A stretch of DNA of 64,000 nucleotides. Source: Planctomycetota bacterium. GTDB taxonomy: Bacteria > Planctomycetota > UBA8742 > UBA2392. The stretch is taken from NCBI GenBank assembly GCA_016712285.1, contig JADJRK010000001.1, positions 2,821,188-2,885,187 on the forward strand. The letters are read 5' to 3'. Positions 8,686 through 60,689 of the stretch are shown here, one piece after another. The notes under the pieces were generated by a model. That model did not search any database, was not told the DNA's origin, and saw only the letters and a program-made list of their open reading frames with translations. Each line of letters begins with the position of its first letter. Within the stretch, counting starts at the first letter, position 1. The position numbers were made by a program, and so were the translations under genes.

Positions 8686-10044
8686 CTATTTCACAGCCGG
8701 GTCAGGTTCGCCCATGGCGATCAGCCGTGCGCGGCAGGCATCGGCGATCTCGCCCTGTCCTTCAAACGTGTCATAGGTCTTGCGGTACCACGCCGCGGCA
8801 TCGGCGTTGCGGCCCGCACCGTCATAGGCCTGGGCAAGCAGGTACATGCCGCTGGGTGACCCGGGCACCAGGCGCAATGCATGCTCAAGCCGGCTTGCCG
8901 ACACAGCCCAGTCGCTACGCCGCAGCGCCACAGCCCCGCCCATGAAACTGGGCCAGAAGCCTTCGCCGTCTAACGCCAGCGCCTTGCTGCTGCTTTGCTC
9001 GGCTTCGTCGTAGCGGCCCAGGTAGTACAGCGCCTGCGCGACGTTGACGTGCAGCACGGCATGGTCGCTGCGCTGGTTCACCGCCTGTTTGTACAGGTCC
9101 AGCGCCTGCTCAAGCTTCTGTTTGCGCACGGTTGCGTCTTCACTCTGTAGCGCCTCGCCGGCGAGCGCATCGCCGCGGTCGGCCAGGTCGTAGGCGGGCT
9201 GGGCCGCGCGCATGTCGACCAGGGCGCTGGTGTACTCGGCGTCGCCGCGGAAGTACTCGCCTTCTCCTTTGTATTCCTTCTCGAGTTGGCGACCCAGGTA
9301 GTCCACCCGGTTGCCGGGGTCGGGGTGGCTGGACAGGAACTCGGGCGTGCCGCCGCCGTGCTCGTGCGTGACTTCTTCCAGCATCCGCATCACGTTGATG
9401 ATGCCGTCGGGGTGATAGCCCGCGCGGGCGGCAAAGCGCATGCCGAAGGTGTCGGATTCTTTTTCGTTGTCGCGCGAATAGCTCAGGCTCAGCAACTGGT
9501 ACCCGACCAGGCCGATCAGCGCCACTCCTTCCATTTCTTCGCCGGTGCTGGCCACCAGCATCAGCCCGAGCATGACCAGCGTGGCCTCGCTCATGCGCTC
9601 AGTGCCGTGGCGCCCGAACACGTGCGTGACTTCATGGCCCAGCAGGCCCGCAAGTTCAGACTCGTCTTTCAGGCGCTGCATGATGCCGCGCGTGACAAAC
9701 ACGTGCCCGCCCGGCAGCGCGAACGCGTTGATCATGCTGGTGTTGACGACGTAGAAGTTGAACTCCCAGTCCGGGAACTGCGCCTCGCCCTTTAGCCGCG
9801 TGCGGCCGGCCTCCACGACCTTCTGGCCCACCCGGTTGACGTACTCCTGCGTGGCGCGATCGGGGTACAAGCCGCCGAGTTCTGCCACGATCGGCTGCAC
9901 GTTTTCGTCGCCGAGCTGTTTTTCGCTGTCGTAATCGTAGATGTTGAGCGTGGACTTGCCGGTGAGCGGGTCGGTCTGGCATGAGCTGACCAGCGGCAGA
10001 ACGGCAAACAGCAGGATCGGGATTGCGCGCAGCAGCAGTTTCAT
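8686..10044 (-). CDS. M48-family zinc metallopeptidase with C-terminal TPR repeats (lipoprotein)
   Basis: Signal peptide with lipobox (LVSSC), HExxH motif (LGHEVTHV) and TPR-like C-terminal repeats; AAGGAG Shine-Dalgarno upstream of the ATG. Confidence 0.8.
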   Translation of the reverse strand: MKLLLRAIPILLFAVLPLVSSCQTDPLTGKSTLNIYDYDSEKQLGDENVQPIVAELGGLYPDRATQEYVNRVGQKVVEAGRTRLKGEAQFPDWEFNFYVVNTSMINAFALPGGHVFVTRGIMQRLKDESELAGLLGHEVTHVFGRHGTERMSEATLVMLGLMLVASTGEEMEGVALIGLVGYQLLSLSYSRDNEKESDTFGMRFAARAGYHPDGIINVMRMLEEVTHEHGGGTPEFLSSHPDPGNRVDYLGRQLEKEYKGEGEYFRGDAEYTSALVDMRAAQPAYDLADRGDALAGEALQSEDATVRKQKLEQALDLYKQAVNQRSDHAVLHVNVAQALYYLGRYDEAEQSSSKALALDGEGFWPSFMGGAVALRRSDWAVSASRLEHALRLVPGSPSGMYLLAQAYDGAGRNADAAAWYRKTYDTFEGQGEIADACRARLIAMGEPDPAVK

Positions 10045-16659: not shown

Positions 16660-17928
16660 CTACTCGGTGCGGCGCAAGGTCTTGAAACTGATGCCCAGTA
16701 CCCCGCACAACGCGCCGCATAGGCCGCCCCAGAAAAACAACTCGCGCGGCTCCAGCCATTGCAGCGCCAGCCCCGTCGCCAGCGCGCTGAGCGCCGTGAA
16801 GCCCTGCACGGTAATGGCAACCAGCGCAAAGATGCGCCCCAGGCGCTCGCGCGGGTAGTGCCGCTGGATCAGCGTGGCGCGCCCGACCGTGATCAGCGGA
16901 ATGCTCAAGCCGTGCACGAAAATCGCCACCAGGAAAGTCTCGAACGTCTGCAGCCACAAGAACGGCACATACGTAACGCCATCCAGCAACATCCCCCAGA
17001 TCACAAGCCGCCCGGTGCGCAGCTTGCGGCCAAAGCGCGCCAGCAGCAGCGTGCCGACAAGCCAGCCCGCGCCCAGGCAGGCTTCGAACACGCCATAGGC
17101 CCAGATCTCGAGGCCGAGCGTTCCCTTGATCAGGAACATCGCGCCGACAATCGCGGGGCCCATGATGAAGAAGTTGTCGACGGCGGTCAGAAAAAGCAGC
17201 GAGCGCAGACGCGCGTCACGCCAGGCCGTGCTCAGGCTTTCGCGCAGCTCGGACAGCGAACTGGGCCGCACGCCGGCTTGCGCCAGGGTCTTGCGCGGGG
17301 TGCGAATCAGCAGAATGCACGCAAAGCTGACCAGAAAGCTGCCAGCGTCGGCAACCAGCAGCCACGCGATGCCGTCGGCCCCGGCGCGCTCGCCGGCGAT
17401 CGCGGGCGCCAGCAGAATGCCCACCAGCCCGGCACCCAGGATCACGGCGAGTTGCTGGCTCGTCTGGAAGATGCTGTTCACGCGCAGCAGGTTGGCGCCC
17501 TCGGCCAAGTCAGGGATCAACGCGTCGCGGGCGGGGTTGAACAGAGTGGCAAAGCCGTAGCTGGCAAAGGCGACTACCGGCAGCAGCCACCAGTCCAGCC
17601 AACCCAGGAAGTGCAGCAGCGGAATCGCACCGACAATCAGCGCCCGGGCGATGTCAGAAAGCAGCATCGCGCCACGCCGCGAGAAGCGGTCCACCAGCAC
17701 GCCCGCGTAGGCACCGAACAGCAGAAAGGGCAGCGCATCCATCATGCGCGTCAAGCCAACCTGCGTCTCAGAGTGCGGCCCGACCAGGTAGATCACAAAG
17801 AAGCCGACCGACACCGAGAACACCGAGTCACCAGTGCCCGAAACAAACTGCCCCACCCAAAGCAGGAACAGGTTGCGCGTGCGGCGAGAGGCCACTGGCG
17901 CGGCAGTCTGGGCGACGGGCTGATTCAT
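16660..17928 (-). CDS. MFS transporter
   Basis: About 12 predicted TM helices with MFS-like loop motifs; start taken at ATG 17928 (MNQPVAQ); the + ORF 16759..17943 is an antisense shadow. Confidence 0.75.
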   Translation of the reverse strand: MNQPVAQTAAPVASRRTRNLFLLWVGQFVSGTGDSVFSVSVGFFVIYLVGPHSETQVGLTRMMDALPFLLFGAYAGVLVDRFSRRGAMLLSDIARALIVGAIPLLHFLGWLDWWLLPVVAFASYGFATLFNPARDALIPDLAEGANLLRVNSIFQTSQQLAVILGAGLVGILLAPAIAGERAGADGIAWLLVADAGSFLVSFACILLIRTPRKTLAQAGVRPSSLSELRESLSTAWRDARLRSLLFLTAVDNFFIMGPAIVGAMFLIKGTLGLEIWAYGVFEACLGAGWLVGTLLLARFGRKLRTGRLVIWGMLLDGVTYVPFLWLQTFETFLVAIFVHGLSIPLITVGRATLIQRHYPRERLGRIFALVAITVQGFTALSALATGLALQWLEPRELFFWGGLCGALCGVLGISFKTLRRTE

Positions 17929-18000
17929 GGGTGCGGAGTCTAGCCCGGGCCACCTGCGTTGTCCTTGCCGCCCGTGCGGCATTCGCTAGCCTTGCGCGCC

Positions 18001-19630: not shown

Positions 19631-21019
19631 ATGCGCTCATCGGGCTGGATTTTCGGGCTGTTGCTGATGATTCTCGCCTGCGGTTTGTCGTTCGGCGCAG
19701 GGTACTTCATCGCCAAGCAGGACGTGCCGCCCCCCGCACCGCAGATCGAAACCGCTGAGCTTACGCCGGCTGAAGCACAGCCCGGGCGCGACAAGGTCGT
19801 ACTGCCGCTCACGAACCAGCCCTCAATAGACCAACCCGAAGACACCGGCAACCTCAAGCCAGGGCCGGGCACGGATTCATCGACTGGCCAACCCGGCACC
19901 AAGCCGGACCAGCCACCCGTCGAAGCCGGTTCCAAGCCGGAAAGCACCAAACCAGCCGGCGACCCCAAGACCGCCGCAGAGGCCGCCGAGGCGATCAAAG
20001 AACTCGAGAAGAAGCTGAAAGAACTCGAGGGCCGCGACATTTTCGACCCAGAGGCCATGCTGAACGGCCCCAAAGTTGACTTCACGGCCACGATCACCGG
20101 CTCAGTCAGCGACACCGCCGGGCAGCCGGTCGCGGGCGCCGGCATCTATGGCGAATTCAGTGAAAACTACGGTGGCGGCGGCAACGTACTGCGCGTTTCG
20201 ATTGGCGGCGACGGCCAGGACGTCGGCGACCTGCTGACGACCACGGACTCGGGCGGGACCTTCCGCATCGACATCAACCGCAAGGTCAACGAAAAGGCCG
20301 GGCTGCACGTGGACTTGACGGCCAAGTCACAGGGCTACGCCGACAGCAAGACCATCGGCGTGTCGCTCAAGAATGGCGACACCAAGGAAGGCATCAAGCT
20401 GGCGCTGCGACAGGCCGGCAGCGTGGCTGGACGAGTGGTGGACCAGTCGGGCGCCGGTGTCGCCGGCATGCAGGTCAGCCTGGGCAGCGGAAGCCAGATG
20501 GGCGACCTGGGCCTTGAGATTGAAATGGGGGGCGCGGGCAGCAAGCTTTCCGCCACCACCGATGGCTCCGGCGAATATCGCATCGAGAACGTGCCCGAGG
20601 GCGACTATCGCCTGAAGTTGCGCGGTGCGGGCTACCGCGAAGTCAGCGGCCCCGCACAAATCAAGGTCAAGGCCGGCGCCGAAACCCGCGCAGCCGCCGA
20701 CTTCGTGGTCGCCATTACTTGCAGCGTGCGGCTGGTGGTGCAGGACGCGTCTGGGCAGCCGCTGCGGGCGTGGGTCACGCTCAACTTCAAGGATGCCGAG
20801 GGCAAGAGCGTCAAGAAGCTCAACGGCATGACTGACAGCGACGGCAATTTCAGCGCCAACGAGCCCCCAGTCGGCAACTTCAACGTCGAGGTGGCGGCCT
20901 GGGGCTACAAGCCTGAAACGGTGCCCGCCAACGTCATGGAAGGCCTGGCCTGCGACCTCGGGCGCCTGACACTGCAACCGTCTGAGACTAAGCCGGGGCC
21001 AGGCGACTCCGGCGAGTAA
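19631..21019 (+). CDS. membrane-anchored protein with carboxypeptidase-regulatory-like beta-sandwich domains
   Basis: N-terminal TM anchor, Pro/Gly-rich linker, then repeats of the GxVxDxxGxPVAGAxV type. Confidence 0.55.
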   Translation: MRSSGWIFGLLLMILACGLSFGAGYFIAKQDVPPPAPQIETAELTPAEAQPGRDKVVLPLTNQPSIDQPEDTGNLKPGPGTDSSTGQPGTKPDQPPVEAGSKPESTKPAGDPKTAAEAAEAIKELEKKLKELEGRDIFDPEAMLNGPKVDFTATITGSVSDTAGQPVAGAGIYGEFSENYGGGGNVLRVSIGGDGQDVGDLLTTTDSGGTFRIDINRKVNEKAGLHVDLTAKSQGYADSKTIGVSLKNGDTKEGIKLALRQAGSVAGRVVDQSGAGVAGMQVSLGSGSQMGDLGLEIEMGGAGSKLSATTDGSGEYRIENVPEGDYRLKLRGAGYREVSGPAQIKVKAGAETRAAADFVVAITCSVRLVVQDASGQPLRAWVTLNFKDAEGKSVKKLNGMTDSDGNFSANEPPVGNFNVEVAAWGYKPETVPANVMEGLACDLGRLTLQPSETKPGPGDSGE

Positions 21020-48184: not shown

Positions 48185-48320
48185 ACCGGCAATCCGTGAG
48201 TTCAGTAACGCACAGAAAAATTTGCGCGGAAGGCGGGCGCGTCTTTGCGCGAGTTGAGTAAACTGCCGGGCGGACGATCAGGGGTGCGGCTGGATGCGAT
48301 CTGCTGGTGGCAAAGTAATC

Positions 48321-51300
48321 ATGGGGGCGGTGGCCGGCGTCGTTGTCGTCGTGCTGCTGCTGCTGTTGAACGCCAACGTCAATGCGCCAGCACCTCACGA
48401 CGAAGCCGGAAACACGCCCCTCACCAACAAGCCGCAGAACAAGGGCAACGAGCCCGATCATCCGTCCAATACACCGCAGGATCCGCCGCCGGACGACCCG
48501 CCACCAGACGTGCCCGAAGACCCACCCGAGGTTGTGCTTGAGCCGCTGCCGGGGCCGAAGATCGAGGTGCAGGTCAAGGTGCGCGTATTGACGCCCGCCG
48601 GCAGCCCGGTGTCCGGAGCTACCGTTTCCCTGCGCGCGATGCCGCGCGGGCACCAGTTTGAAGAAGATTGGTTTGAGCCACCCGAGCTGGTTGAGCTGAA
48701 GTCAGGCACGACCGACGGCGCCGGGGAAGCACAGTTCGACGTGTACATCGGCACGGACAGCAACGGCGAGCGCATGCTGCAGGCACACGCGGCTGCGCAA
48801 GGCTATGCCCCGGGCCGCTCAGCCACGACACTCTTGAACGTTCACAATCACACGTGCCTGCTGACGCTGCGGCTGCATGCGGAATGCGCAATCCTGGGGC
48901 GGGTCGTAGACAGCGCGGGCAACGGGGTCTCCGGCGCGCGGGTAAACGCATACGTGTTCGGCGCGTCGACCACGCTGCCTTGGGCCAGCACCGACAGCGG
49001 GCAGGACGGGCGTTTTCGTATCGACAACATGCCCGCGACAGCCGGCATCATTGGCGCCCGCGCCGCGGGTTTCGCGCAGGCCTGGCCATGGAACTACCGC
49101 TACACGCCGATCCCGCCTGAGCACGACGTGGGCGACCTTGTGCTGCAAGCCACCGGCGGCGTGACTGGCCGCGTGCTGGACCCGTCCGGCAACCCATTGC
49201 CGGGGGCGCACGTCTTTGTGCGTCCGACCGACACGTTGTTCGGCGGTGAAGACACCGCGCAGACGGATGCGGACGGGCGCTTCACAATCGCCGAGCTGCG
49301 GCACGGGGCCGGCACGTACCGTCTGGCGGTCTGCCACGCCAAGTTCGCGCGCGCGCTGCTCGAAGAATTCGACGTGGCGTCAGGCCAGGTCACCGACGTC
49401 GGCGACCAGCGCGTCACCGCAGGTGCCACCCTGACGGTCAAGGTCACGCATGAACGCGATGCGCCGCTGGGCGGCGCGCTTGTGCGCGTGCTGTATCGCG
49501 GCGCGCACTCGGAACTCGGCCACGCCTGGATGCGCCAACGCGGCCAAGCAACCACGGGTGCCGACGGCATCGCCAGGCTTGTGGGCATGGACGCGGGCAG
49601 TTGGTCGCTGAAAGTCAGTGCCGCAGGGTTTGCAAGCCACAGGGCTGAACTGGAAATGGCCGGGGACCTTGAACATCCGGTGCGGCTGGCCGCCGGCAGC
49701 ACAGTGGAAGGCAAGCTGCTCACGCACGAACGGTTGCCAGCTGCAGGCGCACTGGTGGGGCTGATTTCGTCTGACAGTTCGTCGTACGAGAAGCTCAAGG
49801 ACGGCACGCTTGCGCTAACGGGCGTTGACTGGCCTCCGCGGACCGCAGTGCCCGCGGTGCGCACGGACGCGCAAGGAATGTTTGTTATGAACGACGTTGC
49901 CCCGGGCGCCTATCTGCTCGCGGCCGTTGACTTTGAAGGCCGGGCTTCGCTGGTTGACGGCAGCGTGAATGTGCCACCGCTGTCTGTACTGGACCTGGGA
50001 GAGTTGACGTTTCCGGCCCTCTCAAGGCTGCTGGTGGAAGTCACAGATGATGGCGTGCCCCAGGCCGGGCTGGAACTGCGCATTGTAAAGGACTCGACGC
50101 ACCAGGTCGCCACTACAGACAGCGCGGGAGTGGCGCTCTTTCCCGATCTTCAGCCGGGCGCGTGGCTGGTCATGACTGGCGACGAAGACCTTGCGCCCTC
50201 GTTGCCCGAAGCCGACGCGCGCCGCGTGCAGGTGGTTGAGGGGCGCGACGTGCAGTTCAAGCTCGAGTTGCCGGGGCCGGGGCGCTCGCGCGTCGTTGGC
50301 CGCCTGAGTGTGAACTCGCGGCACGTGTTTCACCGGGTCGTGCTTGAGCGCGAGGGCGCCCGCTATTGGGCCGACGTGGGCGATGACGGGCGCTTCGAGA
50401 TTGGGTCGGTGCTGCACGGTGCCTACGAGTTGAAGGCATACCAGGCAAGCCGTGTCGAAGCCGCGCTGCCCGTGCAGGTGGGCCCGGACGACGGCATCGC
50501 TGAGATCAACCTCGACTTCAGCGGCGGCTCAGTCTCAGGTCGCGTGGAAGGCGGCAACGCCGAAAGCGTGGTGCTGCTGCAGAAGATCGACGCCGAAAGC
50601 TCTCACTTTCGGGCCGAGACGAAGTGTGACGCCAACGGCGTGTTCGACTTCAGCGGGGTGCCCGCGGGGCGCTGGCGGCTGGGCGTCGCGGGCACATCGG
50701 GTGCCGCCCATGTGGATATCGACGTTGGGGCAGTTGATGTCACGGATGTTGTGCTGCAACCCGCGCCGGCCGGCTCGCTGGTGGTGATCGTCGCCAAGCT
50801 GATTGGCAACCCGGGCACCAACATGTTCGTCGCGCGTCTGCGTGACTCGCAAGGCCACCTGATCTTGCCCGGGGACGGCGTCTTCCCCAGTGAGGGCGCA
50901 CGGGTCGTCATCGAGGGCATTGAGCCCGGCGACTACACGCTGGAATTCACCGGCATGGGCTATGCCAGCCGCTACGCGCCGGTCAGCATTAAGGCTGGTG
51001 AGCGCACCGAGGTCTCCCTTGAGTTGCCCGCGGCGGCAACAGCAACCATTGAACTCTCCGGTGAGGGTCTCGATGCAACGGCCGTGGCACAAGCCGCCGT
51101 CGAATGGCTGGACAGCGCTGGCAAGCCGATTCGTGTGCCGTACTGGCAAGGCAAGCCGCGCCAGAAGTCGGCGCTCGAGCTTGAGGTGCCGGGGTTGATG
51201 CCCGAGGTGAAACAGGTCGTATTGACTGTGCCCGGGTACAAGCCCGCGACCCTGACCATTGATTTCAAGCCGGGTGCGAAACTGTCGCTGAAGTACCAGC

Positions 51301-51326
51301 TCAGCCCGGCAGTTGAGCCGGAATAA
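48321..51326 (+). CDS. giant membrane-anchored protein with about 8 carboxypeptidase-regulatory-like domains
   Basis: Track ORF 48294..51326; TM anchor, Pro-rich linker, then repeated modules with GxVxDxxGxPLPGAxV and DADGRF/DSAGxA-type turns. Confidence 0.6.
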   Translation: MGAVAGVVVVVLLLLLNANVNAPAPHDEAGNTPLTNKPQNKGNEPDHPSNTPQDPPPDDPPPDVPEDPPEVVLEPLPGPKIEVQVKVRVLTPAGSPVSGATVSLRAMPRGHQFEEDWFEPPELVELKSGTTDGAGEAQFDVYIGTDSNGERMLQAHAAAQGYAPGRSATTLLNVHNHTCLLTLRLHAECAILGRVVDSAGNGVSGARVNAYVFGASTTLPWASTDSGQDGRFRIDNMPATAGIIGARAAGFAQAWPWNYRYTPIPPEHDVGDLVLQATGGVTGRVLDPSGNPLPGAHVFVRPTDTLFGGEDTAQTDADGRFTIAELRHGAGTYRLAVCHAKFARALLEEFDVASGQVTDVGDQRVTAGATLTVKVTHERDAPLGGALVRVLYRGAHSELGHAWMRQRGQATTGADGIARLVGMDAGSWSLKVSAAGFASHRAELEMAGDLEHPVRLAAGSTVEGKLLTHERLPAAGALVGLISSDSSSYEKLKDGTLALTGVDWPPRTAVPAVRTDAQGMFVMNDVAPGAYLLAAVDFEGRASLVDGSVNVPPLSVLDLGELTFPALSRLLVEVTDDGVPQAGLELRIVKDSTHQVATTDSAGVALFPDLQPGAWLVMTGDEDLAPSLPEADARRVQVVEGRDVQFKLELPGPGRSRVVGRLSVNSRHVFHRVVLEREGARYWADVGDDGRFEIGSVLHGAYELKAYQASRVEAALPVQVGPDDGIAEINLDFSGGSVSGRVEGGNAESVVLLQKIDAESSHFRAETKCDANGVFDFSGVPAGRWRLGVAGTSGAAHVDIDVGAVDVTDVVLQPAPAGSLVVIVAKLIGNPGTNMFVARLRDSQGHLILPGDGVFPSEGARVVIEGIEPGDYTLEFTGMGYASRYAPVSIKAGERTEVSLELPAAATATIELSGEGLDATAVAQAAVEWLDSAGKPIRVPYWQGKPRQKSALELEVPGLMPEVKQVVLTVPGYKPATLTIDFKPGAKLSLKYQLSPAVEPE

Positions 51327-51418
51327 CGCAGCGAAAGCAGGCGTGGGACAGCTAGCCGTTGCGGCCAGATGTTGGCGCTTGTTCCCACGGCCTGTGGCCT
51401 TTCCTATATTGCCTGCCC

Positions 51419-53566
51419 ATGCCCGACACCCTTGCATGTGAAAGCCGCATTTCGCGCGTGGTGGTTTACGCGCGCGGCGCGGTCGTAACGCGCGAAGTTG
51501 AGCTGCCGGTGTCGGTGCCGCCGGAGGGCGTGACGCTTGAGCTTCGCGGCATTACGTCCCTTGCCGAACCGGCGAGCTTTCGCACGTCCGTTGATGGCGA
51601 ACGCATTGTCACCAGCCTGCGCGCGCCACTGATCGCGCCTGTAACGCCCCCGCCGCCAACTCCGGACGAAGCGCTGGTATCGAAGCTGCAACGCGAGATC
51701 AGCCGGCTGAACGAACTGACCCAGCGCAAGCAGCGACAACGCGATGCCGTCGCCGCCATGTCGATCGACGCGGACTTGAAGGCACCGAAAGAGACTGAGT
51801 CAGATGGCGCTGGCGGTGCTGGTGGTATTGAAAAGCGCGTTGGCGACGTGCTGGCAATCAGTGCTTTGCAGCATGAAATCCTGACTGCACTGGACGCAGA
51901 GCTCGATGCGCTGGCCGAGAAAGTCCGTGCCAAGGGCACCGAGCTGAAGGCGGCCCGCAACCCGGCGCGCGCAGCCGCCGGCACCCAGTACTCTCGCTCG
52001 GCCCAGGTCACGCTGGCACCCGGCAGCGCGCAGTTGCGCAAGCTGGAGGTCTCCTACACCGTGCGCCCGGCGCGCTGGTGGCCCGCTTATTCGGCGCGGC
52101 TTGAGGGCGGCGGCAAGCACGCCCACTTCGCGCTGGAAGCGTTCGTCGCACAGGTCAGCGGCGAGAACTGGACCGGCGCGCGCATTGCACTGTGCACCGC
52201 CGACATGCTGACCGACGTGACGCTGCCTGAACTGGCCAGCCTGCGCCTCGGCCGCCGACAGCCGCCCCGCCGCACCGGTTTTCGCGCGCCGCCTGAGGGC
52301 CTGGACGCACTGTTTGCCGGGTACGACAGCTTTGTCACACCGCCGCAGATCCCGATGCCCGCGATCGCCGAGCCATCGCCCCGCGACTACGGCGAAGACA
52401 TGGACGACATGGTGGTGGGCTCAGTCTCTGCAATGCCCGAAGAGGAATGGCAGCAGGCACCAACCATGTCTGCGCCTGCCGCGCCGGCTTCGGGCTTTGG
52501 CGGTGCCGCAGACATGCGGATGGAAGCCAAGGCCATGCCGCGGCAGTCTGCACCGGCGAAGTCCGCAAAGAAGGGCCGCGGCGATGCCAGCCGCGACAGG
52601 CTCAAGGATGCTGGCGTCGAGCGCTCACGCTCGCTGAAGCGCAGCGTGGAGATGGAATCCGCCGACGAGGCGGGCGGCGCGGCGCTGGACGAAGACTACG
52701 AGGGCGCCGACGGAGTCGAAGAAGATTTTGCCGACGAGGGCGCAGACGCCGAGTCCTGGCTTGACTTCGACACACTGGAAGTGACACCCGGCGAAGTCTA
52801 TGGCCGCGGCCGGCTTGCGCGCGGCAGCGTGGCCTCGGCGCCGGGGTTGCACCAGGCGCTCAATCATCTGGAAGGGCTGGCCGGCCCGGGCGGCAGCTCG
52901 GACCCGCGCTATTCGCGCGGCATGTTTGACCACCAGTTCGAAGCCGAGGACCTGGTCGAAATCCCCGCCGACGGCACCGCCCACCGCATTCGGCTGCTGA
53001 GCCGCCCCGCAAAGTCGCGCATGCGCATGCGCTGTGTGCCCCTGGCCGACGAGCGCGTGTTTCGTGAAGTCGAGCTGGAGAACCCGCTGGAGGCGCCGCT
53101 GCTGCCCGGCCCGGTGGACGTGTTCATGGATGGCGCATTGCTGATCACCGCGCAGGTTGGCTCGGTAGACCGCGGCGGCACTGTGCGCTTCGGGCTAGGC
53201 GAAGAGCAACGCGTGACCGTGGCCCGCAACATGCGCGCCAGCGAAGAAACCAAGGGTCTGCTCGGCGGCAAGGCGTCTGTGGCGCACGTGGTGACGCTGG
53301 AAGTCGCATCGTCGCTGCCTGCCGAGATTGAACTGGAATTGATTGAGCGGGTACCAGTCGCAGCGGGCAAAGACATCCACATTGAAGTCAACAGCAGCAC
53401 GCCCAAAGCCGAGCTGTACAAGCAAGAAGAGCGCGACTACCCGGTCAAGGGCGGCTATCGCTGGTTGTTGAAACTGCCGGCAGGCGGCAAACAGGAAGTG
53501 AAGCTGCAGTACACGCTGGCGTTTGACAAAGACTATGAAGTTGAGGGGGGCAACCGTCGTGCCTGA
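51419..53566 (+). CDS. DUF4139-type protein (mucoidy-inhibitor MuiA-like), paralog 1
   Basis: Track ORF 51359..53566; beta-rich N-terminus, coiled coil, acidic low-complexity insert and C-terminal domain matching the DUF4140/DUF4139 layout as recalled. Confidence 0.55.
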   Translation: MPDTLACESRISRVVVYARGAVVTREVELPVSVPPEGVTLELRGITSLAEPASFRTSVDGERIVTSLRAPLIAPVTPPPPTPDEALVSKLQREISRLNELTQRKQRQRDAVAAMSIDADLKAPKETESDGAGGAGGIEKRVGDVLAISALQHEILTALDAELDALAEKVRAKGTELKAARNPARAAAGTQYSRSAQVTLAPGSAQLRKLEVSYTVRPARWWPAYSARLEGGGKHAHFALEAFVAQVSGENWTGARIALCTADMLTDVTLPELASLRLGRRQPPRRTGFRAPPEGLDALFAGYDSFVTPPQIPMPAIAEPSPRDYGEDMDDMVVGSVSAMPEEEWQQAPTMSAPAAPASGFGGAADMRMEAKAMPRQSAPAKSAKKGRGDASRDRLKDAGVERSRSLKRSVEMESADEAGGAALDEDYEGADGVEEDFADEGADAESWLDFDTLEVTPGEVYGRGRLARGSVASAPGLHQALNHLEGLAGPGGSSDPRYSRGMFDHQFEAEDLVEIPADGTAHRIRLLSRPAKSRMRMRCVPLADERVFREVELENPLEAPLLPGPVDVFMDGALLITAQVGSVDRGGTVRFGLGEEQRVTVARNMRASEETKGLLGGKASVAHVVTLEVASSLPAEIELELIERVPVAAGKDIHIEVNSSTPKAELYKQEERDYPVKGGYRWLLKLPAGGKQEVKLQYTLAFDKDYEVEGGNRRA

Positions 53567-55106
53567 TCCCGCGACAACCCCAAGCAAGGCGCAACTCGTG
53601 CGGTTCTTTGAGGACCGGGCCGAGGTCGTGCGCACCGCCACCGTGAGTCTGCACGAAGGAACGCAGTGGGTGCGCGTGTCGGGCGCAGGCTTGTTCGTGC
53701 ATGACCGCAGCGTGCAGGCGCGCGTTCTGTCGGGCGGCGCCACGGTACTGGCTGCCCGCGTGACCCGGCACACGCGCGAGACGCCGGCTCTGCCCGCCGA
53801 CGAGGTGGCCGGGCTGACCAGCAAGATCACCGAGTTGCACCGCGAGATGCAGCGCCAGCAGCTGTTGCAGTCGCGCCACAACACGCGCGCGAGTATCGCC
53901 GAGGCATTGCTGCGGCGCTGGGCCCTGACGCTGGCTGTCCAACAGCGCCTGGAAGGCAGCGAGAGCATTGAGCACTGGAAGAAAGCCTGGCAGGCCCTGC
54001 TGGCGCGCATTGACGACGCTTATGGCAACGTGCAGTCCATTCGCGAACGCATTGAGGACGTGCAGGTTGAGCTGGCACAGCTTCAGCAGCGGGTCGCCCT
54101 GGGCGAAACCACGCAGCAGCACAATGAATGCCTGGTCGAGGTGCAGTTGTCTGCGCGCGCTGGCGGCGACTGCGAAATTGAACTGACCTACCGCACGCCG
54201 TGCGCGCTGTGGCGCCCCGAGCATGCGGCACGGCTGATTGCGGGCAAAGAGCCCGCCATCGAGTGGGCCAGCTTCGGCGTGGTGTGGCATCGCGCCGGCG
54301 AAGACTGGAGCGACGTCGAGGTGCGCTTCTCGACAGCAAGGCCGGCTGCAATCGCCGACGCGCCGAACATCGACGACGACGTGCTGAGCCTGCGCAAGAA
54401 GACCGCCGAGGAACGCAAAGAGATCAGGGTCGAAGTGCGCGAGCAGACAATCGCCAGCGCGGGCAAGCGCGAAGAACCGGAAATGCCCGGCGTAGACGAC
54501 GGCGGCAAGCCCGTCGAGTTCGCGCCCAAGGGCCGTTTCAAGCTTACGGGCGATGGCAAACCGATCCGTGTTGAGATCAGCAAGCGCACGCTCAAGTGCA
54601 GCATCGAGCGCGCCCTGTACCCCGAGCGCGCGCAAACGGCGTTTCTGAAGGCGACGGCAAACTGGCAGGGCGACGCGCCGCTGCTGGCAGGACCGCTGGC
54701 ACTGGCCCGCGGCGCCTCATTGATCGGGCGCTCACGTGCCGGGTTTGTCGGCGTGGGCGAACGCTTTGACACCGGGTTCGGGCCCGAAGACGGCATGCGC
54801 TGCAAACGAAGCGTCAGCGAACAGCGCGAAACCGCGAAGCTGACGGGCTCGCAGACCATCACCCGCGAGGTCACGCTGCGCATCAGCAACCTGTCCGATG
54901 AAACGCGCCCGCTGGCCATCACCGAGCGCCTGCCCGTCAGCGAAATCGAAGGCCTCGAGGTCAAGCCGCTTGATTTAAAGGGCTGGGAGCACGACCAGAC
55001 GGATGGCTACGTGAAACGCACCCTCGAGCTGAAGCCGCGCGAGAACCTGACACTGACGCTCAAGTACGAAATCCGCGCCAAGTCGAACGTGGTACTTCCC
55101 TTCTGA
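53535..55106 (+). CDS. DUF4139-type protein (MuiA-like), paralog 2
   Basis: Track ORF 53523..55106 (TTG); ATG at 53535 overlaps the end of paralog 1 by about 30 nt; same domain order. Confidence 0.55.
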   Translation: MKLRGATVVPDPATTPSKAQLVRFFEDRAEVVRTATVSLHEGTQWVRVSGAGLFVHDRSVQARVLSGGATVLAARVTRHTRETPALPADEVAGLTSKITELHREMQRQQLLQSRHNTRASIAEALLRRWALTLAVQQRLEGSESIEHWKKAWQALLARIDDAYGNVQSIRERIEDVQVELAQLQQRVALGETTQQHNECLVEVQLSARAGGDCEIELTYRTPCALWRPEHAARLIAGKEPAIEWASFGVVWHRAGEDWSDVEVRFSTARPAAIADAPNIDDDVLSLRKKTAEERKEIRVEVREQTIASAGKREEPEMPGVDDGGKPVEFAPKGRFKLTGDGKPIRVEISKRTLKCSIERALYPERAQTAFLKATANWQGDAPLLAGPLALARGASLIGRSRAGFVGVGERFDTGFGPEDGMRCKRSVSEQRETAKLTGSQTITREVTLRISNLSDETRPLAITERLPVSEIEGLEVKPLDLKGWEHDQTDGYVKRTLELKPRENLTLTLKYEIRAKSNVVLPF

Positions 55107-55455
55107 ACAACTGGATGGGTACCAGCATCAGATTGCCGGCTGAGGTCTACAGTCGACGGTCGACAGTTCACGGTAACTGCGGCTACTTGCAGTAACCGTA
55201 GACTGTGAACCGTTGACCGTGAACCTGCTCCCTGACTCTGGTGGTCATGCAATTCTGAACAAGCGAGTGGTCCGGAACCCGCCGCGCCAAAGGCCCGGCG
55301 GGCGGTGAGGCTTTGCAGGCACGGCGCACGTGTCATTTTGGACAAGTTAGGTCTTTTGGGCCACTTTTATCCATTTTATATTGTCCGTTGAAATTTTAAA
55401 CCGCCGGTATAATATTCGCCCGTGATGCAGCCCCGCTGCACTTCGGGAGAGAGCA

Positions 55456-56868
55456 ATGCCGGACGCCGACCCACCTGCCACCCACGACGAGTTCGGCCTC
55501 GTCAAATTCCACATCATCGCCGGGATCACGTGGCTGTTTGTCGGCATGCTGGCCGGCACGCTGATGGGCTACCGCCTGTCGGGCGCCGCCGCAGCCGAGT
55601 TCATCGGCGACATCGCCGAGCTGAGCTACGGCCGCGTACGCATGCTGCACACCCACGCCGTGGTCTTCGGCTGGCTGAGCAATGGCTTCCTGGCGTTCAG
55701 CTACTACGCAATCCCTAAACTGACCGGGCGACGCCTGTGGATGCGCGGGTTGGCGCGGGGCAACGCGGTGTTCTTCCAGGTGGCGGTGCTGGTGGGCGCG
55801 ATCGGGTTGCTGACCGGGCACGCCGAGGGCGTGGAGTACGCTGAGGCGCCGTGGTGGGCCGACGTCGTATTTGCGCTCAGCTTCGTGGGCGCGGTGCTGG
55901 TCAACGTCGGCACGATCCTGACCAGCGGCGTGAAGAACATGTACGTCACGCTGTGGTACCTAATACTCGGGTTCGTGTTCACCACGCTGAACTTCGTGAT
56001 GGCCAACACCATCGTTGCCCACGTTGCGCCGGGCGCCGCGGGCGCAAGCATCGAGGGCCTGTGGATTCACAACGCCGTCGGCCTGTGGGTCACGCCGATG
56101 GGTGTTGCGATCATCTACTATCTGCTGCCCGTGATCCTCAAGCGCCCGATTGCCAGCCACAAGTTGAGCTTGCTGGGCTTCTGGACACTGGCCTTCTTTT
56201 ACCCACTGGGCGGCAGCCACCATTTCTTTTACTCGCCGACGCCGTGGTGGTTGCAGGTACTGGCTGTGCCGCTGACGTTCACGCTGATCTTTGTGGTCTA
56301 CAGTGTCGTCTACAACTTCTTCGCGACGATGAAGGGCCGCTGGAAAGAGATTGCGAAAGACATCCCGCTGCGCTGGCTGACGTTCGGCTTGATCAACTAC
56401 ATCATCACCTGCACGCAGGGCCCGTTTCACGCGCTGCTGAGCGTGCAGCAGGTCATCCACTTCACCGACTGGGTGGTGGCGCACGCGCACTTGGCACTGT
56501 TCGGCGTGTTCTCGTGGTGGGTGTACGCGTTCATTTACTGGATCTGGCCCAAGCTCACGGGTCGCGCCTACTCGCGCGCCTTTGCCGAGTGGCACTTCTG
56601 GTTGACACTCGTCAGCTTCTGGGTGCTGTACTACGTGGCCGACACCGTCGCCGGCCTCATGCAGGGCATGTTCTGGCTGACCACACTGCCGCTGCAGGAT
56701 TCCATCGAAGCAGCATTGCCCTTCTGGGCCACGCGCGCCATTTCTGGCGTGTTGATCCTGGCCGGCACAATCTGCTTCGTGATCAGCCTGGCCCGCAAGG
56801 GCAAGCCTGTCATTGACGACGACACGAAACAGCCGCAAGCGCAACCGGAGGTCGCACATGTCGAATGA
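55456..56868 (+). CDS. ccoN: cbb3-type cytochrome c oxidase subunit I
   Basis: 12-TM heme-copper oxidase with CcoN-like His ligand regions (MLHTHAVVFGWLSNGF, HNAVGLWVTPMG, WVVAHAHLALFG); AT-rich promoter-like region upstream. Confidence 0.85.
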   Translation: MPDADPPATHDEFGLVKFHIIAGITWLFVGMLAGTLMGYRLSGAAAAEFIGDIAELSYGRVRMLHTHAVVFGWLSNGFLAFSYYAIPKLTGRRLWMRGLARGNAVFFQVAVLVGAIGLLTGHAEGVEYAEAPWWADVVFALSFVGAVLVNVGTILTSGVKNMYVTLWYLILGFVFTTLNFVMANTIVAHVAPGAAGASIEGLWIHNAVGLWVTPMGVAIIYYLLPVILKRPIASHKLSLLGFWTLAFFYPLGGSHHFFYSPTPWWLQVLAVPLTFTLIFVVYSVVYNFFATMKGRWKEIAKDIPLRWLTFGLINYIITCTQGPFHALLSVQQVIHFTDWVVAHAHLALFGVFSWWVYAFIYWIWPKLTGRAYSRAFAEWHFWLTLVSFWVLYYVADTVAGLMQGMFWLTTLPLQDSIEAALPFWATRAISGVLILAGTICFVISLARKGKPVIDDDTKQPQAQPEVAHVE

Positions 56869-58045
56869 GAAAGCGGTTGTTGCCGAGAAACCGATGTTCG
56901 TGCTGACCGTGGCCGGGCTGGGGTTCTTCCTGCTCAGCTTCGTGGGCATGGGGCTTGGCCCGTGGTTGGGCCTTGAGCTGGGCATGGAGCCGCCCGAGGA
57001 ATTCGTCAATCCATACGAGGACGAAGCCGGCGAAATCAACGCCATCGGCCGCGGCCGCAAGGTCTACATTCGTGAGGCGTGCTGGCACTGCCACAGCCAG
57101 TTCGTGCGTCCCGTTGCCAACGAAGAGTTCCGGTACGGCCCTGTCAGCCAGGCGTGGGAGTACATGTACGACGTGCCCAACACGTTCGGCACCCGCCGCA
57201 TCGGGCCCGACCTGGCGCGCGAAGCCGGCCGCCGCAGCGATGACTGGCACTTCGCGCACCTGTGGAACCCGCGTAGCACTGTGCCGGCCAGCATCATGCC
57301 CAAGTACAAGTGGCTGTTCACGGAAAGCGCCGACGGCATTGAGCCAACGCAGGACGCGCAGGACCTGGTGGCCTACCTGCAATACCTGGGCATCAACTTC
57401 AAGCAGGACGTGCGCCGGCAGGTATGGCCCGAGCGCGTGGTTGTGTCAGGTGCGCCCGTGACGACACCCGAAGCCGGGCGGCGCGGCGAGGAACTGTTCA
57501 ACAAGTACTGCACCGGCTGCCACGGCGAAAGCGGCAACGGGCAAGGCATGGCATCGCCGTTTCTCAAGCCGTCTGCGGCGGACCTGACGACACGATACCT
57601 GCCGCGCGAAGAAGTCTTCCGCATCCTGTTCATGGGCAGCGAGGGCAGCAGCATGCCCAGCTTCAGCGAACTGACTGAAAAGGACCTGTGGGCGATCAGC
57701 CAGCACGTGCACTACATAGGCCGCGACGTCCGTGCCGAAGCGCTGAAACCCGCGGCAAACGCGCAGCTGGTGGCGCGCGGCCGCGAGGTCTACGACCGCT
57801 CGTGCAAGAGCTGCCACGGTGAAGACGGTCTGGTGCCCGAGATCATGGAAAAGGCGCTGAAACCCGCACCCAAGCACTTCCGCGACCGGGTCTATCAGCC
57901 TGCCTACGTGCGCAAGGTGATCGACGAGGGCCGGCCCGGCACGACTATGGCGTCGTTCGCTCACCTGCCTTCGGAAGACAAGGATGCGCTGGTCGCCTAC
58001 CTGGCCAGCCTGTTCGACGCCGACAAGTACAAGGAGAAACCATGA
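56858..58045 (+). CDS. fused cbb3 oxidase subunit II (CcoO, monoheme) with a C-terminal diheme cytochrome c domain (CcoP-like)
   Basis: Track ORF 56813..58045; ATG 56858 preceded by GGAG; TM anchor, then CWHCH (CcoO-like) plus two further CxxCH motifs (CTGCHG, CKSCHG). Confidence 0.75.
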   Translation: MSNEKAVVAEKPMFVLTVAGLGFFLLSFVGMGLGPWLGLELGMEPPEEFVNPYEDEAGEINAIGRGRKVYIREACWHCHSQFVRPVANEEFRYGPVSQAWEYMYDVPNTFGTRRIGPDLAREAGRRSDDWHFAHLWNPRSTVPASIMPKYKWLFTESADGIEPTQDAQDLVAYLQYLGINFKQDVRRQVWPERVVVSGAPVTTPEAGRRGEELFNKYCTGCHGESGNGQGMASPFLKPSAADLTTRYLPREEVFRILFMGSEGSSMPSFSELTEKDLWAISQHVHYIGRDVRAEALKPAANAQLVARGREVYDRSCKSCHGEDGLVPEIMEKALKPAPKHFRDRVYQPAYVRKVIDEGRPGTTMASFAHLPSEDKDALVAYLASLFDADKYKEKP

Positions 58046-58236
58046 ACCTTGCCTGCTTCTTCTGCGATGAGGGTGCCTACAACACGGCGCTGTTCGTGGT
58101 GACCATCTTCGGGCTGTTCTTCATGGGCATGTTCATGCTGTGCGTGGGTTACTGGAAAGCCGGCGCCTTCAAGGCTTCCAACCAGACCGAACTCAGGGTG
58201 CTTGAAGCGGAGGGCATCATGGAGGAACGGTCATGA
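58042..58236 (+). CDS. small single-TM protein (CcoQ-like accessory subunit, tentative)
   Basis: 64-aa ORF overlapping the upstream stop as ATGA; one hydrophobic helix; position within the cbb3 operon. Confidence 0.45.
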   Translation: MNLACFFCDEGAYNTALFVVTIFGLFFMGMFMLCVGYWKAGAFKASNQTELRVLEAEGIMEERS

Positions 58237-58412
58237 GCAACGACACCACTCAGCCCGCCCCGCCGGACAGCGAATCGATCGATACAGAAATTCCCGGCAT
58301 GGAGAACCCGAAGATACCGCTGTGGATCAAGCTGATGTGGCTTGGCGCGGTGCTGTTCATCCTGTGGTACATCATCTTCGGCTTGCAGGCATCGCCGACA
58401 ACGTGGGCTTAG
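58233..58412 (+). CDS. 59-aa ORF resembling the FixP N-terminal TM domain of CcoP (not in ORF track)
   Basis: Translated by hand: MSNDTTQPAPPDSESIDTEIPGMENPKIPLWIKLMWLGAVLFILWYIIFGLQASPTTWA; ENPxIPLW plus TM helix resembles the FixP_N segment; ATGA overlap with the preceding ORF. Confidence 0.45.
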   Translation: MSNDTTQPAPPDSESIDTEIPGMENPKIPLWIKLMWLGAVLFILWYIIFGLQASPTTWA

Positions 58413-58428: not shown

Positions 58429-58456
58429 GCGGCGCGGACCGTGTGGTCCGCGCCGC
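58429..58456. terminator. GC-rich hairpin between convergent genes (end of cbb3 operon)
   Basis: 12-bp perfect stem gcggcgcggacc-gtgt-ggtccgcgccgc followed by aattcttc. Confidence 0.5.
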
Positions 58457-58463
58457 AATTCTT

Positions 58464-60689
58464 CTATCGGCCGTAGCTGCCTACCGCCACGACATCGCCC
58501 AGGCTGGTGAGCCTTTCCATGCTGTCGGTGCGGCTGTCCCATGCCCACAGTTCGCCGTAGGTGACGTTGCCGTCGGGTCGGTACATTACGCAGTAGGCGA
58601 CGTAAGCCTTCGCGTCCAGTGCCATCGACTGGCAGCTCTGGCCCGCAAGCTGCATCCAGCGACGTCCGCCGGCGCCGCCTGTTTCTATGGTCGCCACGCC
58701 GATGCCCGGCGCGCCATAGACAGATTCACCCATGGTCGCGTTGGTCCAGCACGAATAGCAGAAGTATGCGTTGTCGCTGGTCCAGGCGCCTTCGCTGTTG
58801 TACGCGGGCTCAAACGCAGCGTTCGCGATGGACTTGATCAGCTTGCCGTCGGGACCCCATACGCCGACGTGGCTGCCGTTGGCCGTGAACGCGAACATCT
58901 TGCCATTCGGGCTGCAGGCAAAGCCGCCGTTCATCATGTCCAGCGCTTCGCCGAACTTGTGCTCTGCAAACGTGTGCTCGGGGTAGCCCACGGCCATGGC
59001 ACTGTTCCAGCCGTCGTACACGTGCCAGATCTCTCCGCCACGCCAGGTCGGGCGGCCCAGCGCCTGTCGCGTGCGGTGGCTGTTGATGCGGACATCACCC
59101 ATGTCGTAGACGCCGCCTTCAGTGGGCAGAATCACGCTGCCCGCACCCGCCCAGCGCTTCATGACGTCGTTCTCGCCGCGCGTTTTGCCGTTGCGGTAGA
59201 TCAGCGGGAGTGTGCCCTGGATGTCCACGTATAGCGAATGGCCGACGGGCACACCGGCCAGGCTGAACGTGCCGTCCGAGTTGATCACGCCGCGGCAGAC
59301 CGTGTGGTCAACAATAATCGAGCCCGTGAACCCATCGTTTCGGTCGCGTCCGCCCATGGGGTCGTCGTCGTACCACACGATGCGGCCCTTGAGTGTGCAT
59401 GTCTGCTCAGACTTCAGCGGCTGCGCGATGCCCTTGTTGTCGGCCCAGCGGGGGCTGATCTGGTTGACCGTGCCGGACTCAAGCTCAAGCACGAACACGT
59501 CGCGCTCGAACGAGCATATGCCGCTGTTGAGATTGCTGGAGAAGGCAACGCGCTTGCGGTCAGGAGAGACGGCGATCTGCGAGACAGTTGTGCCCTCCCA
59601 CAGTGTGAGCAGGTTCTTCACTACCTTCTTCGTCTTGGTGTCAAAGGCCTGCAGTCGGGTGACCTTGCCGTTGTTGCGGCCGATCACGATTTCGTGTTCC
59701 TCCAGCGCCCGGAATTTCTCGCCCAGTACTTTGCCCGTTTCGCCTTTTTCCGGCCCGGCGCTGCCGTTGTCGGGCTTGGCGTCGATCACTTTGCCGTAGC
59801 TGTATGTGTAGCTCTCCTTGAGCGTGGCGTTTGCCTCAATGTCTGCGCCTGACAATTTGCCTTTGGCTTTGAGTGTGCCGCTCCAGCCCAGGCTCACCAT
59901 GCGGCCCTCAGTTGCGTTGAACACGGCCTCGCCGCTCAGTGTGGACTCAGTGGTGTATCGCGTTGAGGACGCATCATCGAACTCGTTGATCTGCTCGGTG
60001 AAGTGCGTGAACTTGATTGCCAGCTTCAACTTGACTGTCAGGCCCTCGTCTCGGGCCATGTTCATTCCTGACACCGTAGCGGTGATGTCATGGGACTTGA
60101 TGACGTCACTCGCGCTGAATCCCCCAAGAATGCCGATTTGCGCCGGCTGCAACTTGAAGCTGTCGCCCACGCTTACCGACTTGCCGTGCGCAATCACGGG
60201 CTGCCGCTCGCCACAGGCGGCTCCTTGGTTCTCGGCGTCGATCAACGCGCTCGGTTTGACGGCCAGGCTGCGCGAACCATCAGCCGCCACAGCCAGCACG
60301 AACGAGACGTTGGCTTTCCAATCCTGGCCATCGGTGATCATTTCCTCTGGGCCCTTGCCCATATCCAACACCTGCATGTTCTTGCGCATGATCGCGCCGT
60401 AGCTGCGCCAGAGCTGGGTCACCCGGCTGCCATCCATGCCGGTGATCCACTCGTCCACGTCACGATGGATGGTGAACCCGAAGCGGTTGTCTGTGGCCCA
60501 GTCTTTGCCGGGACTGTAAGTCACGGTAGACGCGAACTCGACGGTTTCACTGGTGCGCCGCAGCGTGCCGACTTCAAGCTTTTCGGCCAGCACGGCCGAT
60601 TCCTGCGCCATCACAACTTTCGGTGACTGCGTGTTGCCGACCGACCAGATGACCAGCATCGCTGCACTCAAAGCAACCAGGCGTCCCAT
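58464..60689 (-). CDS. large secreted hypothetical protein (beta-propeller-like)
   Basis: 741 aa, N-terminal signal peptide, beta-rich Gly/Asp/Trp-containing repeats; no catalytic motif recognised. Confidence 0.55.
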   Translation of the reverse strand: MGRLVALSAAMLVIWSVGNTQSPKVVMAQESAVLAEKLEVGTLRRTSETVEFASTVTYSPGKDWATDNRFGFTIHRDVDEWITGMDGSRVTQLWRSYGAIMRKNMQVLDMGKGPEEMITDGQDWKANVSFVLAVAADGSRSLAVKPSALIDAENQGAACGERQPVIAHGKSVSVGDSFKLQPAQIGILGGFSASDVIKSHDITATVSGMNMARDEGLTVKLKLAIKFTHFTEQINEFDDASSTRYTTESTLSGEAVFNATEGRMVSLGWSGTLKAKGKLSGADIEANATLKESYTYSYGKVIDAKPDNGSAGPEKGETGKVLGEKFRALEEHEIVIGRNNGKVTRLQAFDTKTKKVVKNLLTLWEGTTVSQIAVSPDRKRVAFSSNLNSGICSFERDVFVLELESGTVNQISPRWADNKGIAQPLKSEQTCTLKGRIVWYDDDPMGGRDRNDGFTGSIIVDHTVCRGVINSDGTFSLAGVPVGHSLYVDIQGTLPLIYRNGKTRGENDVMKRWAGAGSVILPTEGGVYDMGDVRINSHRTRQALGRPTWRGGEIWHVYDGWNSAMAVGYPEHTFAEHKFGEALDMMNGGFACSPNGKMFAFTANGSHVGVWGPDGKLIKSIANAAFEPAYNSEGAWTSDNAYFCYSCWTNATMGESVYGAPGIGVATIETGGAGGRRWMQLAGQSCQSMALDAKAYVAYCVMYRPDGNVTYGELWAWDSRTDSMERLTSLGDVVAVGSYGR

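Follow-up and report, generated by a model that had tools for sequence, protein, structure and literature searches.

The cbb3-type, or C-family, heme-copper oxidases are high-affinity respiratory enzymes that set the lower oxygen limit of aerobic respiration in many bacteria, and to our knowledge all structural and mechanistic work on them concerns the proteobacterial CcoNO(Q)P form. In the canonical complexes of Pseudomonas stutzeri (3MK7/5DJQ), Rhodobacter capsulatus (6XKW) and P. aeruginosa (8SMR), the diheme module of CcoP is carried on a membrane anchor of its own. Subunit fusions have been described elsewhere in the family: in the cbb3 oxidase of Nitrospina gracilis all three subunits are fused (PMC10839748), and CcoN-CcoO fusions have been reported (PMC5371394) and are curated in NCBIfam as NF011053 and NF011054. 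Ducluzeau et al. 2008 (Mol Biol Evol 25:1158), in the passage quoted in PMC8788666, separated 'proximal' and 'distal' cbb3 subtrees of unlike subunit composition. Here we describe an operon at positions 55456-58412 (+ strand) of a 64,000-nucleotide stretch of DNA from a Planctomycetota bacterium (contig JADJRK010000001.1; the whole stretch is called the window below), which probably encodes a complete and self-contained non-canonical C-family cbb3 oxidase in which the parts of CcoP are distributed otherwise than in the canonical form and a CcoS-like peptide is encoded alongside.

The operon consists of four closely packed genes, as determined from a list of open reading frames (ORFs) and by reading of the sequence: ccoN, a second gene for a predicted triheme subunit (gene 2), and two mini-ORFs that we refer to as s1 and s2. 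Each of the four is preceded, 3-6 nt upstream, by a Shine-Dalgarno-like motif. The ORF of gene 2 spans 56813-58045, with a likely start at the ATG at 56858 behind a GGAGG and hence an 11-nt overlap with ccoN, and ATGA overlaps join gene 2 to s1 at 58042 and s1 to s2 at 58233. An earlier sequence-only reading of this DNA had placed the ORFs and both ATGA overlaps at these same positions, and the ORF list and the sequence itself agree with it.

Compared with the canonical complexes, the operon specifies the same CcoN ligands and cross-link Tyr, a CcoO monoheme domain on an N-terminal transmembrane (TM) helix that is 36-40% identical to the solved CcoO chains, and a CcoP-type diheme module together with a putative FixP_N-like helix, for a predicted total of three c-hemes. 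It differs in that the diheme module is covalently joined to CcoO, with the putative anchor encoded as a separate peptide of 59 amino acids (aa), in that CcoQ is lacking and a putative CcoS-like gene lies within the structural operon, and in that the Glu of the CcoN motif FEGP is replaced by Gln. As in Nitrospina gracilis and the CcoN-CcoO fusions, subunits of a C-family oxidase have been fused, but here the fusion is confined to CcoO and the CcoP heme module, while CcoN remains separate and the CcoP anchor appears to have been split off.

Catalytic subunit and fused cytochrome subunit

The first gene, ccoN (55456-56868, +), encodes a 470-aa catalytic subunit I of a C-family heme-copper oxidase and matched Pfam COX1 with an E-value of 1.5e-71. 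Its best relatives in the Protein Data Bank (PDB) were the CcoN chains of cbb3 oxidases (6xkw_n, 3mk7_A and 8smr_E, at about 170-180 bits), with NorB at 48 bits. In an alignment of the window protein with the CcoN proteins of 15 further non-canonical loci and four canonical ccoNOQP loci, all six His ligands (two for heme b, one for heme b3 and three for CuB) were conserved, as was the cross-link Tyr on helix VII, six residues before the HH pair, where FFYPLGGSHH aligns with canonical (F/M)(L/M)YIWAGPHH. The three CuB His residues and this Tyr are hallmarks of O2-reducing heme-copper oxidases, and O2 reduction would be the expected physiological reaction of the enzyme. The canonical FEGP Glu, present in 4/4 canonical sequences, was replaced by Gln (TQGP) in the window and in all 15 other non-canonical loci. 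In the window the substitution falls within CTQGP, at CcoN residues 319-323 (window positions 56410-56424). In the P. stutzeri structure paper this Glu is reportedly hydrogen-bonded to the proximal His of heme b3. The replacement is a signature of the clade and may matter for function.

The second gene (56858-58045, +) encodes a 395-aa polypeptide that begins with a TM helix, continues with a CcoO monoheme domain and ends with a CcoP-like diheme module (residues ~200-390). The Pfam domains were FixO (PF02433) at residues 65-186, with an E-value of 4.5e-44 and a score of 151 bits against a gathering cut-off of 29.6, followed by two Cytochrome_CBB3/Cytochrom_C domains at 206-284 and 305-385. The heme motifs are CWHCH (residues 75-79), CTGCH (218-222) and CKSCH (316-320). 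In an alignment of 53 sequences the positions C75/C78/H79/M147, C218/C221/H222/M266 and C316/C319/H320/M364 were invariant, which shows that the triple CxxCH motifs are not a product of chance, and the polypeptide is predicted to carry three c-hemes with His/Met ligation. A single-chain AlphaFold2 model (pLDDT 89.4, pTM 0.85) placed the N-terminal helix at residues 10-42, and Foldseek matched the N-terminal part to CcoO chains (8smr_F and 3mk7_B). The top NCBIfam model for gene 2 (185.6 bits) likewise describes a CcoO with one or more extra c-type heme domains at the C-terminus, but gene 2 falls under its 447-bit cut-off, and at 294 aa the model is too short to accommodate two further hemes.

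Comparison of the diheme columns of the 53-sequence alignment with five canonical CcoP sequences gave an hhalign score of 166 (prob 99.7) over 172 columns, collinear with CcoP residues 104-289, whereas with the same profile cytochrome c4 scored 75 and a further diheme cytochrome 77. This difference in score assigns the module to the CcoP type. In a sequence search of the PDB with phmmer, the best diheme match was the CcoP of P. aeruginosa (8smr_G; E 3.6e-9), which covered residues 203-385 of gene 2 and residues 137-310 of the 312 in CcoP. The best NCBIfam model for the diheme part was TIGR00782 ccoP, at 57 bits against an equivalog cut-off of 180. Given this score, and since the FixP_N anchor and the diheme domain are not on one polypeptide here, the anchor-like s2 being a separate gene, no single gene of the operon is equivalent to CcoP. 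The sequence-only reading had claimed a CcoO-like region and two further heme motifs on one polypeptide, and had proposed that the parts of CcoP were redistributed at this locus; the order of the FixO and cytochrome c domains, the invariant ligands and the collinear alignment with CcoP bear out the first point and support the second as a difference in layout, which may have arisen by a split of CcoP or may reflect parts from which CcoP was put together.

Two small peptides downstream of the fused gene

The first mini-ORF, s1 (58042-58236, +), encodes 64 aa with a CFFC at residues 5-8, one TM helix and a CcoS/FixS-like tail (KAGAFK...LRVLEAEGI) predicted to be cytoplasmic. Common to its family are an invariant A-C-x-x-C, a single TM helix and a tail with ...R.LE at its end. 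A signal-like hydrophobic segment precedes the Cys pair in most s1 relatives, whereas the window and locus L001, a 95%-identical relative from the Planctomycetota metagenome-assembled genome SJ873, have MNLA only, and no other start lies upstream in the reading frame. Three of the nine s1 relatives matched Pfam FixS (4.2e-8), and TIGR00847 ccoS was matched by two of the nine (6e-6). By hhalign the window-type s1 subgroup was linked to a FixS-positive CxxC subgroup (prob 98.4), and the latter to plain FixS-like peptides (prob 98.7), while direct comparison of the window-type subgroup with the plain FixS-like peptides gave a probability of 30% only. On account of the matches in relatives and of this transitive link between profiles, we read s1 as a putative peptide of the CcoS/FixS type that has diverged and bears an additional periplasmic CxxC.

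With CcoS/FixS (PF03597, TIGR00847) s1 shares the single-pass form and the tail motif ...G(Q/A)(F/Y)...E..K.R.LE, but it has the N-terminal, presumably periplasmic, A-C-x-x-C, its gene lies inside the structural operon and not in ccoGHIS, and the tail of the window-type peptides is too divergent for a direct match. CcoS is required for the supply of cofactors and copper to CcoN and has been described as having no recognisable motifs (PMC8267372). CcoQ was also considered as an identity for either mini-ORF and was rejected: among 19 family members none matched FixQ (PF05545) at E<=10, and hhalign against six CcoQ sequences returned probabilities of 1-5%, with a score of 14 for mini-ORF 1. The sequence-only reading, which gave mini-ORF 1 no identity, had named CcoQ/FixQ among the families to be looked for, and on this point the outcome was otherwise, mini-ORF 1 being CcoS/FixS-like and not CcoQ-like.

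The second mini-ORF, s2 (58233-58412, +), encodes 59 aa, in which an acidic N-terminal tail and the motif ENPKIPLW precede a single TM helix and a short tail, GLQxSPxxW, follows it. FixP_N (PF14715) was matched by six of ten s2 relatives, with a best E-value of 2.6e-4, and any other family by at most one of the ten; the window copy was not itself matched. A word-indexed search with s2 alone gave one near-identical protein, and it was an alignment-based search that found the family. We aligned the N-termini of seven canonical CcoP proteins from plasmid and chromosome records and compared them with the s2 family by hhalign, which returned a probability of 92.4 and a score of 35.6 (prob 90 for a 33-member s2 alignment); the paired segments were (I/V)PLWIKLMW...W..Y and PLPRWWLWTFYATI.W..GY. 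Column shuffles, 200 in all, scored 10.1 +/- 2.6 with a maximum of 20.1, so that the observed score lies about 10 standard deviations above them. The reversed alignment scored 14.4, and other single-helix families (CcoQ, s1 and the FixS-like peptides), compared with one another as controls, scored 11-18.

Two natural fusions also bear on the assignment. The 193-aa protein P0289 carries an s2-type anchor and a monoheme cytochrome c domain on one chain, in the manner of a small CcoP, and in the 109-aa protein P0313 a CxxC peptide of the s1 type is joined to an s2-type helix. The latter links the two peptides and, with the CxxC of s1 in the periplasm, sets the topology of s2 as N-in/C-out, as for the anchor of CcoP. 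The earlier claim that mini-ORF 2 resembles the N-terminal TM segment of CcoP stands at the level of the s2 family, which resembles FixP_N. At 4-6 positions ahead of its PxW motif, s2 has a conserved acidic residue that may be the counterpart of the invariant Glu in the GIxE of canonical CcoP. That Glu is presumably located at a proton channel entrance.

The s2 homologue is only 35 aa long in loci L016 (6557-6664), L019 (5968-6075) and L035 (4391-4498), for example MSDHKFPRWLAALWIAALIGIVGY..., and in L016 it had not been called as a gene. L016 and L019 are deltaproteobacterial-type loci, and in both of them s1 and s2 are separated by a further FixS-like peptide, which has no CxxC.

Spread of the operon type, rival explanations and significance

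Relative to L001, the ratio of nonsynonymous to synonymous differences (pN/pS) was 0.068 for gene 2, 0.049 for s1 and 0.152 for s2, and both mini-ORFs are under purifying selection. The comparison of related loci, which the sequence-only reading had put forward as a check, showed that small ORFs follow the fused gene in 9/9 independent loci and that the order N / O-diheme / s1 / (second FixS-like) / s2 is kept down to 41% identity. These loci belong to Planctomycetota, Nitrospirota and further uncultured lineages, and two are deltaproteobacterial. The order of FixO and cytochrome c domains was found in all of the 120 fused-protein homologues listed, and metagenomes commonly contain the CcoO-diheme fusion. 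When contigs were scanned with a single protein, L001 was the only true relative found, the other 10 loci holding unrelated cytochromes c and no CcoP. The non-canonical organisation proposed from the sequence alone is therefore real, although it is widespread and not peculiar to this locus: the operon is an ordinary member of a widespread, biochemically uncharacterised cbb3 variant, apparently the usual one in Planctomycetota, Nitrospirota and further environmental lineages.

Fusions of this kind also occur on plasmids of cultured bacteria, such as pGX3 of Komagataeibacter, where the protein is annotated 'monoheme and diheme subunits', and pBIL of Paraburkholderia. On the pSymA replicon of Sinorhizobium meliloti lies a second, non-canonical cbb3 cluster (L023, CP140933.1 530741-534492), in which ccoN is accompanied by a CcoO of 554 aa that contains three CxxCH motifs, by an s2-like peptide of 74 aa annotated 'hypothetical protein' and by a 40-aa ORF; TauE/SafE and a P-type ATPase come next. 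In the proteobacterial plasmid subtype two extra cytochromes c are encoded upstream, the only FixS-like peptide has no CxxC, and s2 is missing. On a Nitrospirota contig (L014), a remnant-like second set lies 3 kb downstream, at 9040-9654 (-), and comprises a 72-aa FixO fragment, a 53-aa FixS-like peptide and a 79-aa peptide with PPW...W..W.

We propose that in the assembled enzyme one membrane-anchored polypeptide would hold the CcoO heme next to heme b, and beyond it the CcoP-type diheme module. Electrons would then pass from the donor cytochrome c to the distal c-heme, the proximal c-heme, the CcoO heme, heme b and finally b3-CuB, a path that would be identical to the canonical one except that the c-hemes belong to a single chain. 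The s2 peptide would be the free-standing counterpart of the CcoP anchor, oriented N-in/C-out and probably docked on CcoN at the canonical site of the CcoP helix, which in R. capsulatus is near CcoN TMH8/9 (PMC7876108). The s1 peptide would serve as a CcoS-type maturation factor whose periplasmic CxxC may aid the loading of copper, heme or both into CcoN.

A number of observations weigh against this interpretation. The TIGR00781 score of gene 2 was 137 against an equivalog cut-off of 201, and for the diheme part Foldseek ranked Kuenenia Kustc0457 and the actinobacterial QcrC above CcoP. The window contains no ccoG/H/I or CcoQ genes, the window copy of s1 has no direct match in Pfam, NCBIfam or the PDB, and the literature searched gave no experimental evidence for any member of the subtype. 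An unlikely but substantial alternative is that s2 is unrelated to CcoP, being a small stabilising or assembly peptide like CcoQ or CcoM, in which case the likeness to FixP_N would be a convergence of TM helices that start with proline and tryptophan. The window s2 had no Pfam match at E<=10, no NCBIfam match and no relevant PDB match (the best PDB matches of the mini-ORF searches were ELIC ion channels at E ~0.5), and even in its relatives the Pfam matches are weak. The region aligned with CcoP is short and hydrophobic, at 23-24 columns and 17% identity. An hmmsearch with the s2-family profile against 1.84 billion protein representatives found 66 clusters at 50% identity, almost all of 35-90 aa, and retrieved no full-length CcoP, so that any relation of s2 to CcoP must be remote. 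Convergence is nevertheless a poorer account of the fact that FixP_N is the sole family matched by several s2 members, of an hhalign score twice that of any control TM-peptide family, CcoQ included, and of P0289, in which the same anchor precedes a cytochrome c domain as it does in CcoP; the topology deduced from P0313 also agrees with that of CcoP. We accordingly retain the view that s2 resembles the CcoP anchor at the level of the family.

A further explanation concerns the chemistry of the enzyme, which might be mainly a nitric oxide (NO) reductase or an O2/NO scavenger of a divergent C-family clade and not an O2 reductase; we regard this as rather improbable. The TIGR00780 ccoN score of 224.5 bits is far under the equivalog cut-off of 583 and marks the clade as divergent, for which reason we treat the protein as a C-family member and not as an equivalog of the characterised CcoN. 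The Glu-to-Gln replacement throughout the non-canonical group points the same way, and because of it the kinetic properties, and even the substrate preference, may differ from those of characterised enzymes. An NO-reducing function fits less well with the conservation of the three CuB His residues and the cross-link Tyr, and with a NorB match of 48 bits against 180 for CcoN. That the fusion and the mini-ORFs are artefacts, with a frameshift or an assembly error joining ccoO to ccoP and chance ORFs behind it, has next to no probability left. DNA of 63.5% GC does yield many spurious ORFs, but the comparative data refute this account: more than 100 homologues of equal length and domain order come from diverse sources, complete plasmids and contigs of more than 2 Mb among them, the heme ligands are invariant, and the mini-ORFs have pN/pS values of 0.05-0.15 and are kept in every independent locus.

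If the operon does encode a cbb3 oxidase with redistributed CcoP parts, it resembles a natural domain-swap experiment, suggesting that the CcoP heme module is separable from the CcoP anchor helix and that a CcoS-type factor can travel together with the structural genes. It is a tentative thought, which we would not press, that the CcoP helix has a cbb3 role of its own beyond the anchoring of hemes, at the CcoN surface or at the cytoplasmic entrance of a proton pathway, and that the CxxC variant of CcoS is a built-in periplasmic thiol or copper factor replacing parts of CcoGHIS. An independent role for the helix would explain why a free micro-subunit of 35-90 aa is present whenever the CcoP hemes are fused to CcoO. 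The small-subunit assignments may be the only new part of this work. In the literature searched, neither a FixP_N-like peptide encoded on its own nor a CcoS with a CxxC was described. The general picture of C-family oxidases is unchanged. Every s1 and s2 homologue that we checked was annotated 'hypothetical protein', and these two micro-protein families can now be annotated. In such genomes a metagenomic finding of 'ccoP absent' should not be read as an incomplete oxidase, and the L023 cluster of S. meliloti could be a tractable system for study of the small subunits.

Leader region and flanking DNA

The leader of the operon is AT-rich: its GC content at 55330-55420 is 37%, while the window as a whole has 63.5%. 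The leader includes a promoter-like site at 55388-55416 (+), with sigma-70-like hexamers and a putative function, inside the AT-rich conserved segment (~55262-55455). From 55262 to 55458 the leader is almost identical to that of L001, and since synonymous sites of the operon differ by 27-35% between the two, this suggests a conserved regulatory region. No FNR-type box was recognised in the leader between 55262 and 55458. At the other end of the operon a terminator-like hairpin at 58429-58456 (+), a pattern match with a 12-bp stem of which 11 are GC pairs, sits between the operon and a convergent gene (58464-60689, -). The product of the latter, 741 aa long, has a weak PD40 repeat and is unrelated to the oxidase.

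The upstream neighbours (51359-53566 and 53523-55106) are tandem DUF4140/DUF4139 paralogues, also unrelated to the oxidase. The same DUF4140/DUF4139 pair lies ahead of the oxidase genes in L012 and L013, two Planctomycete loci with 70% identity, and synteny thus reaches past the oxidase genes. Relative to L001, the window has a 152-nt insertion in 55101-55262, immediately past the stop codon of the DUF4139 gene upstream. The insertion is bounded on both sides by TTCTGAACAA, a direct repeat of 10 nt without mismatch (55101-55110 and 55253-55262), and within it are an inverted repeat of 9 nt (GTTCACGGT / ACCGTGAAC) and a tandem repeat of 14 nt. The segment is single-copy within the window and has the appearance of a small insertion that duplicated its target site.

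Farther from the operon, a major facilitator superfamily transporter at 16660-17982 (-) was considered as a CcoA-like copper importer and rejected, as it has no MxxxM or HxxxM motifs. The window also encodes two large proteins of secreted type with CarboxypepD_reg / Ig-like repeats, at 48294-51326 (1010 aa) and 19631-21019 (462 aa).

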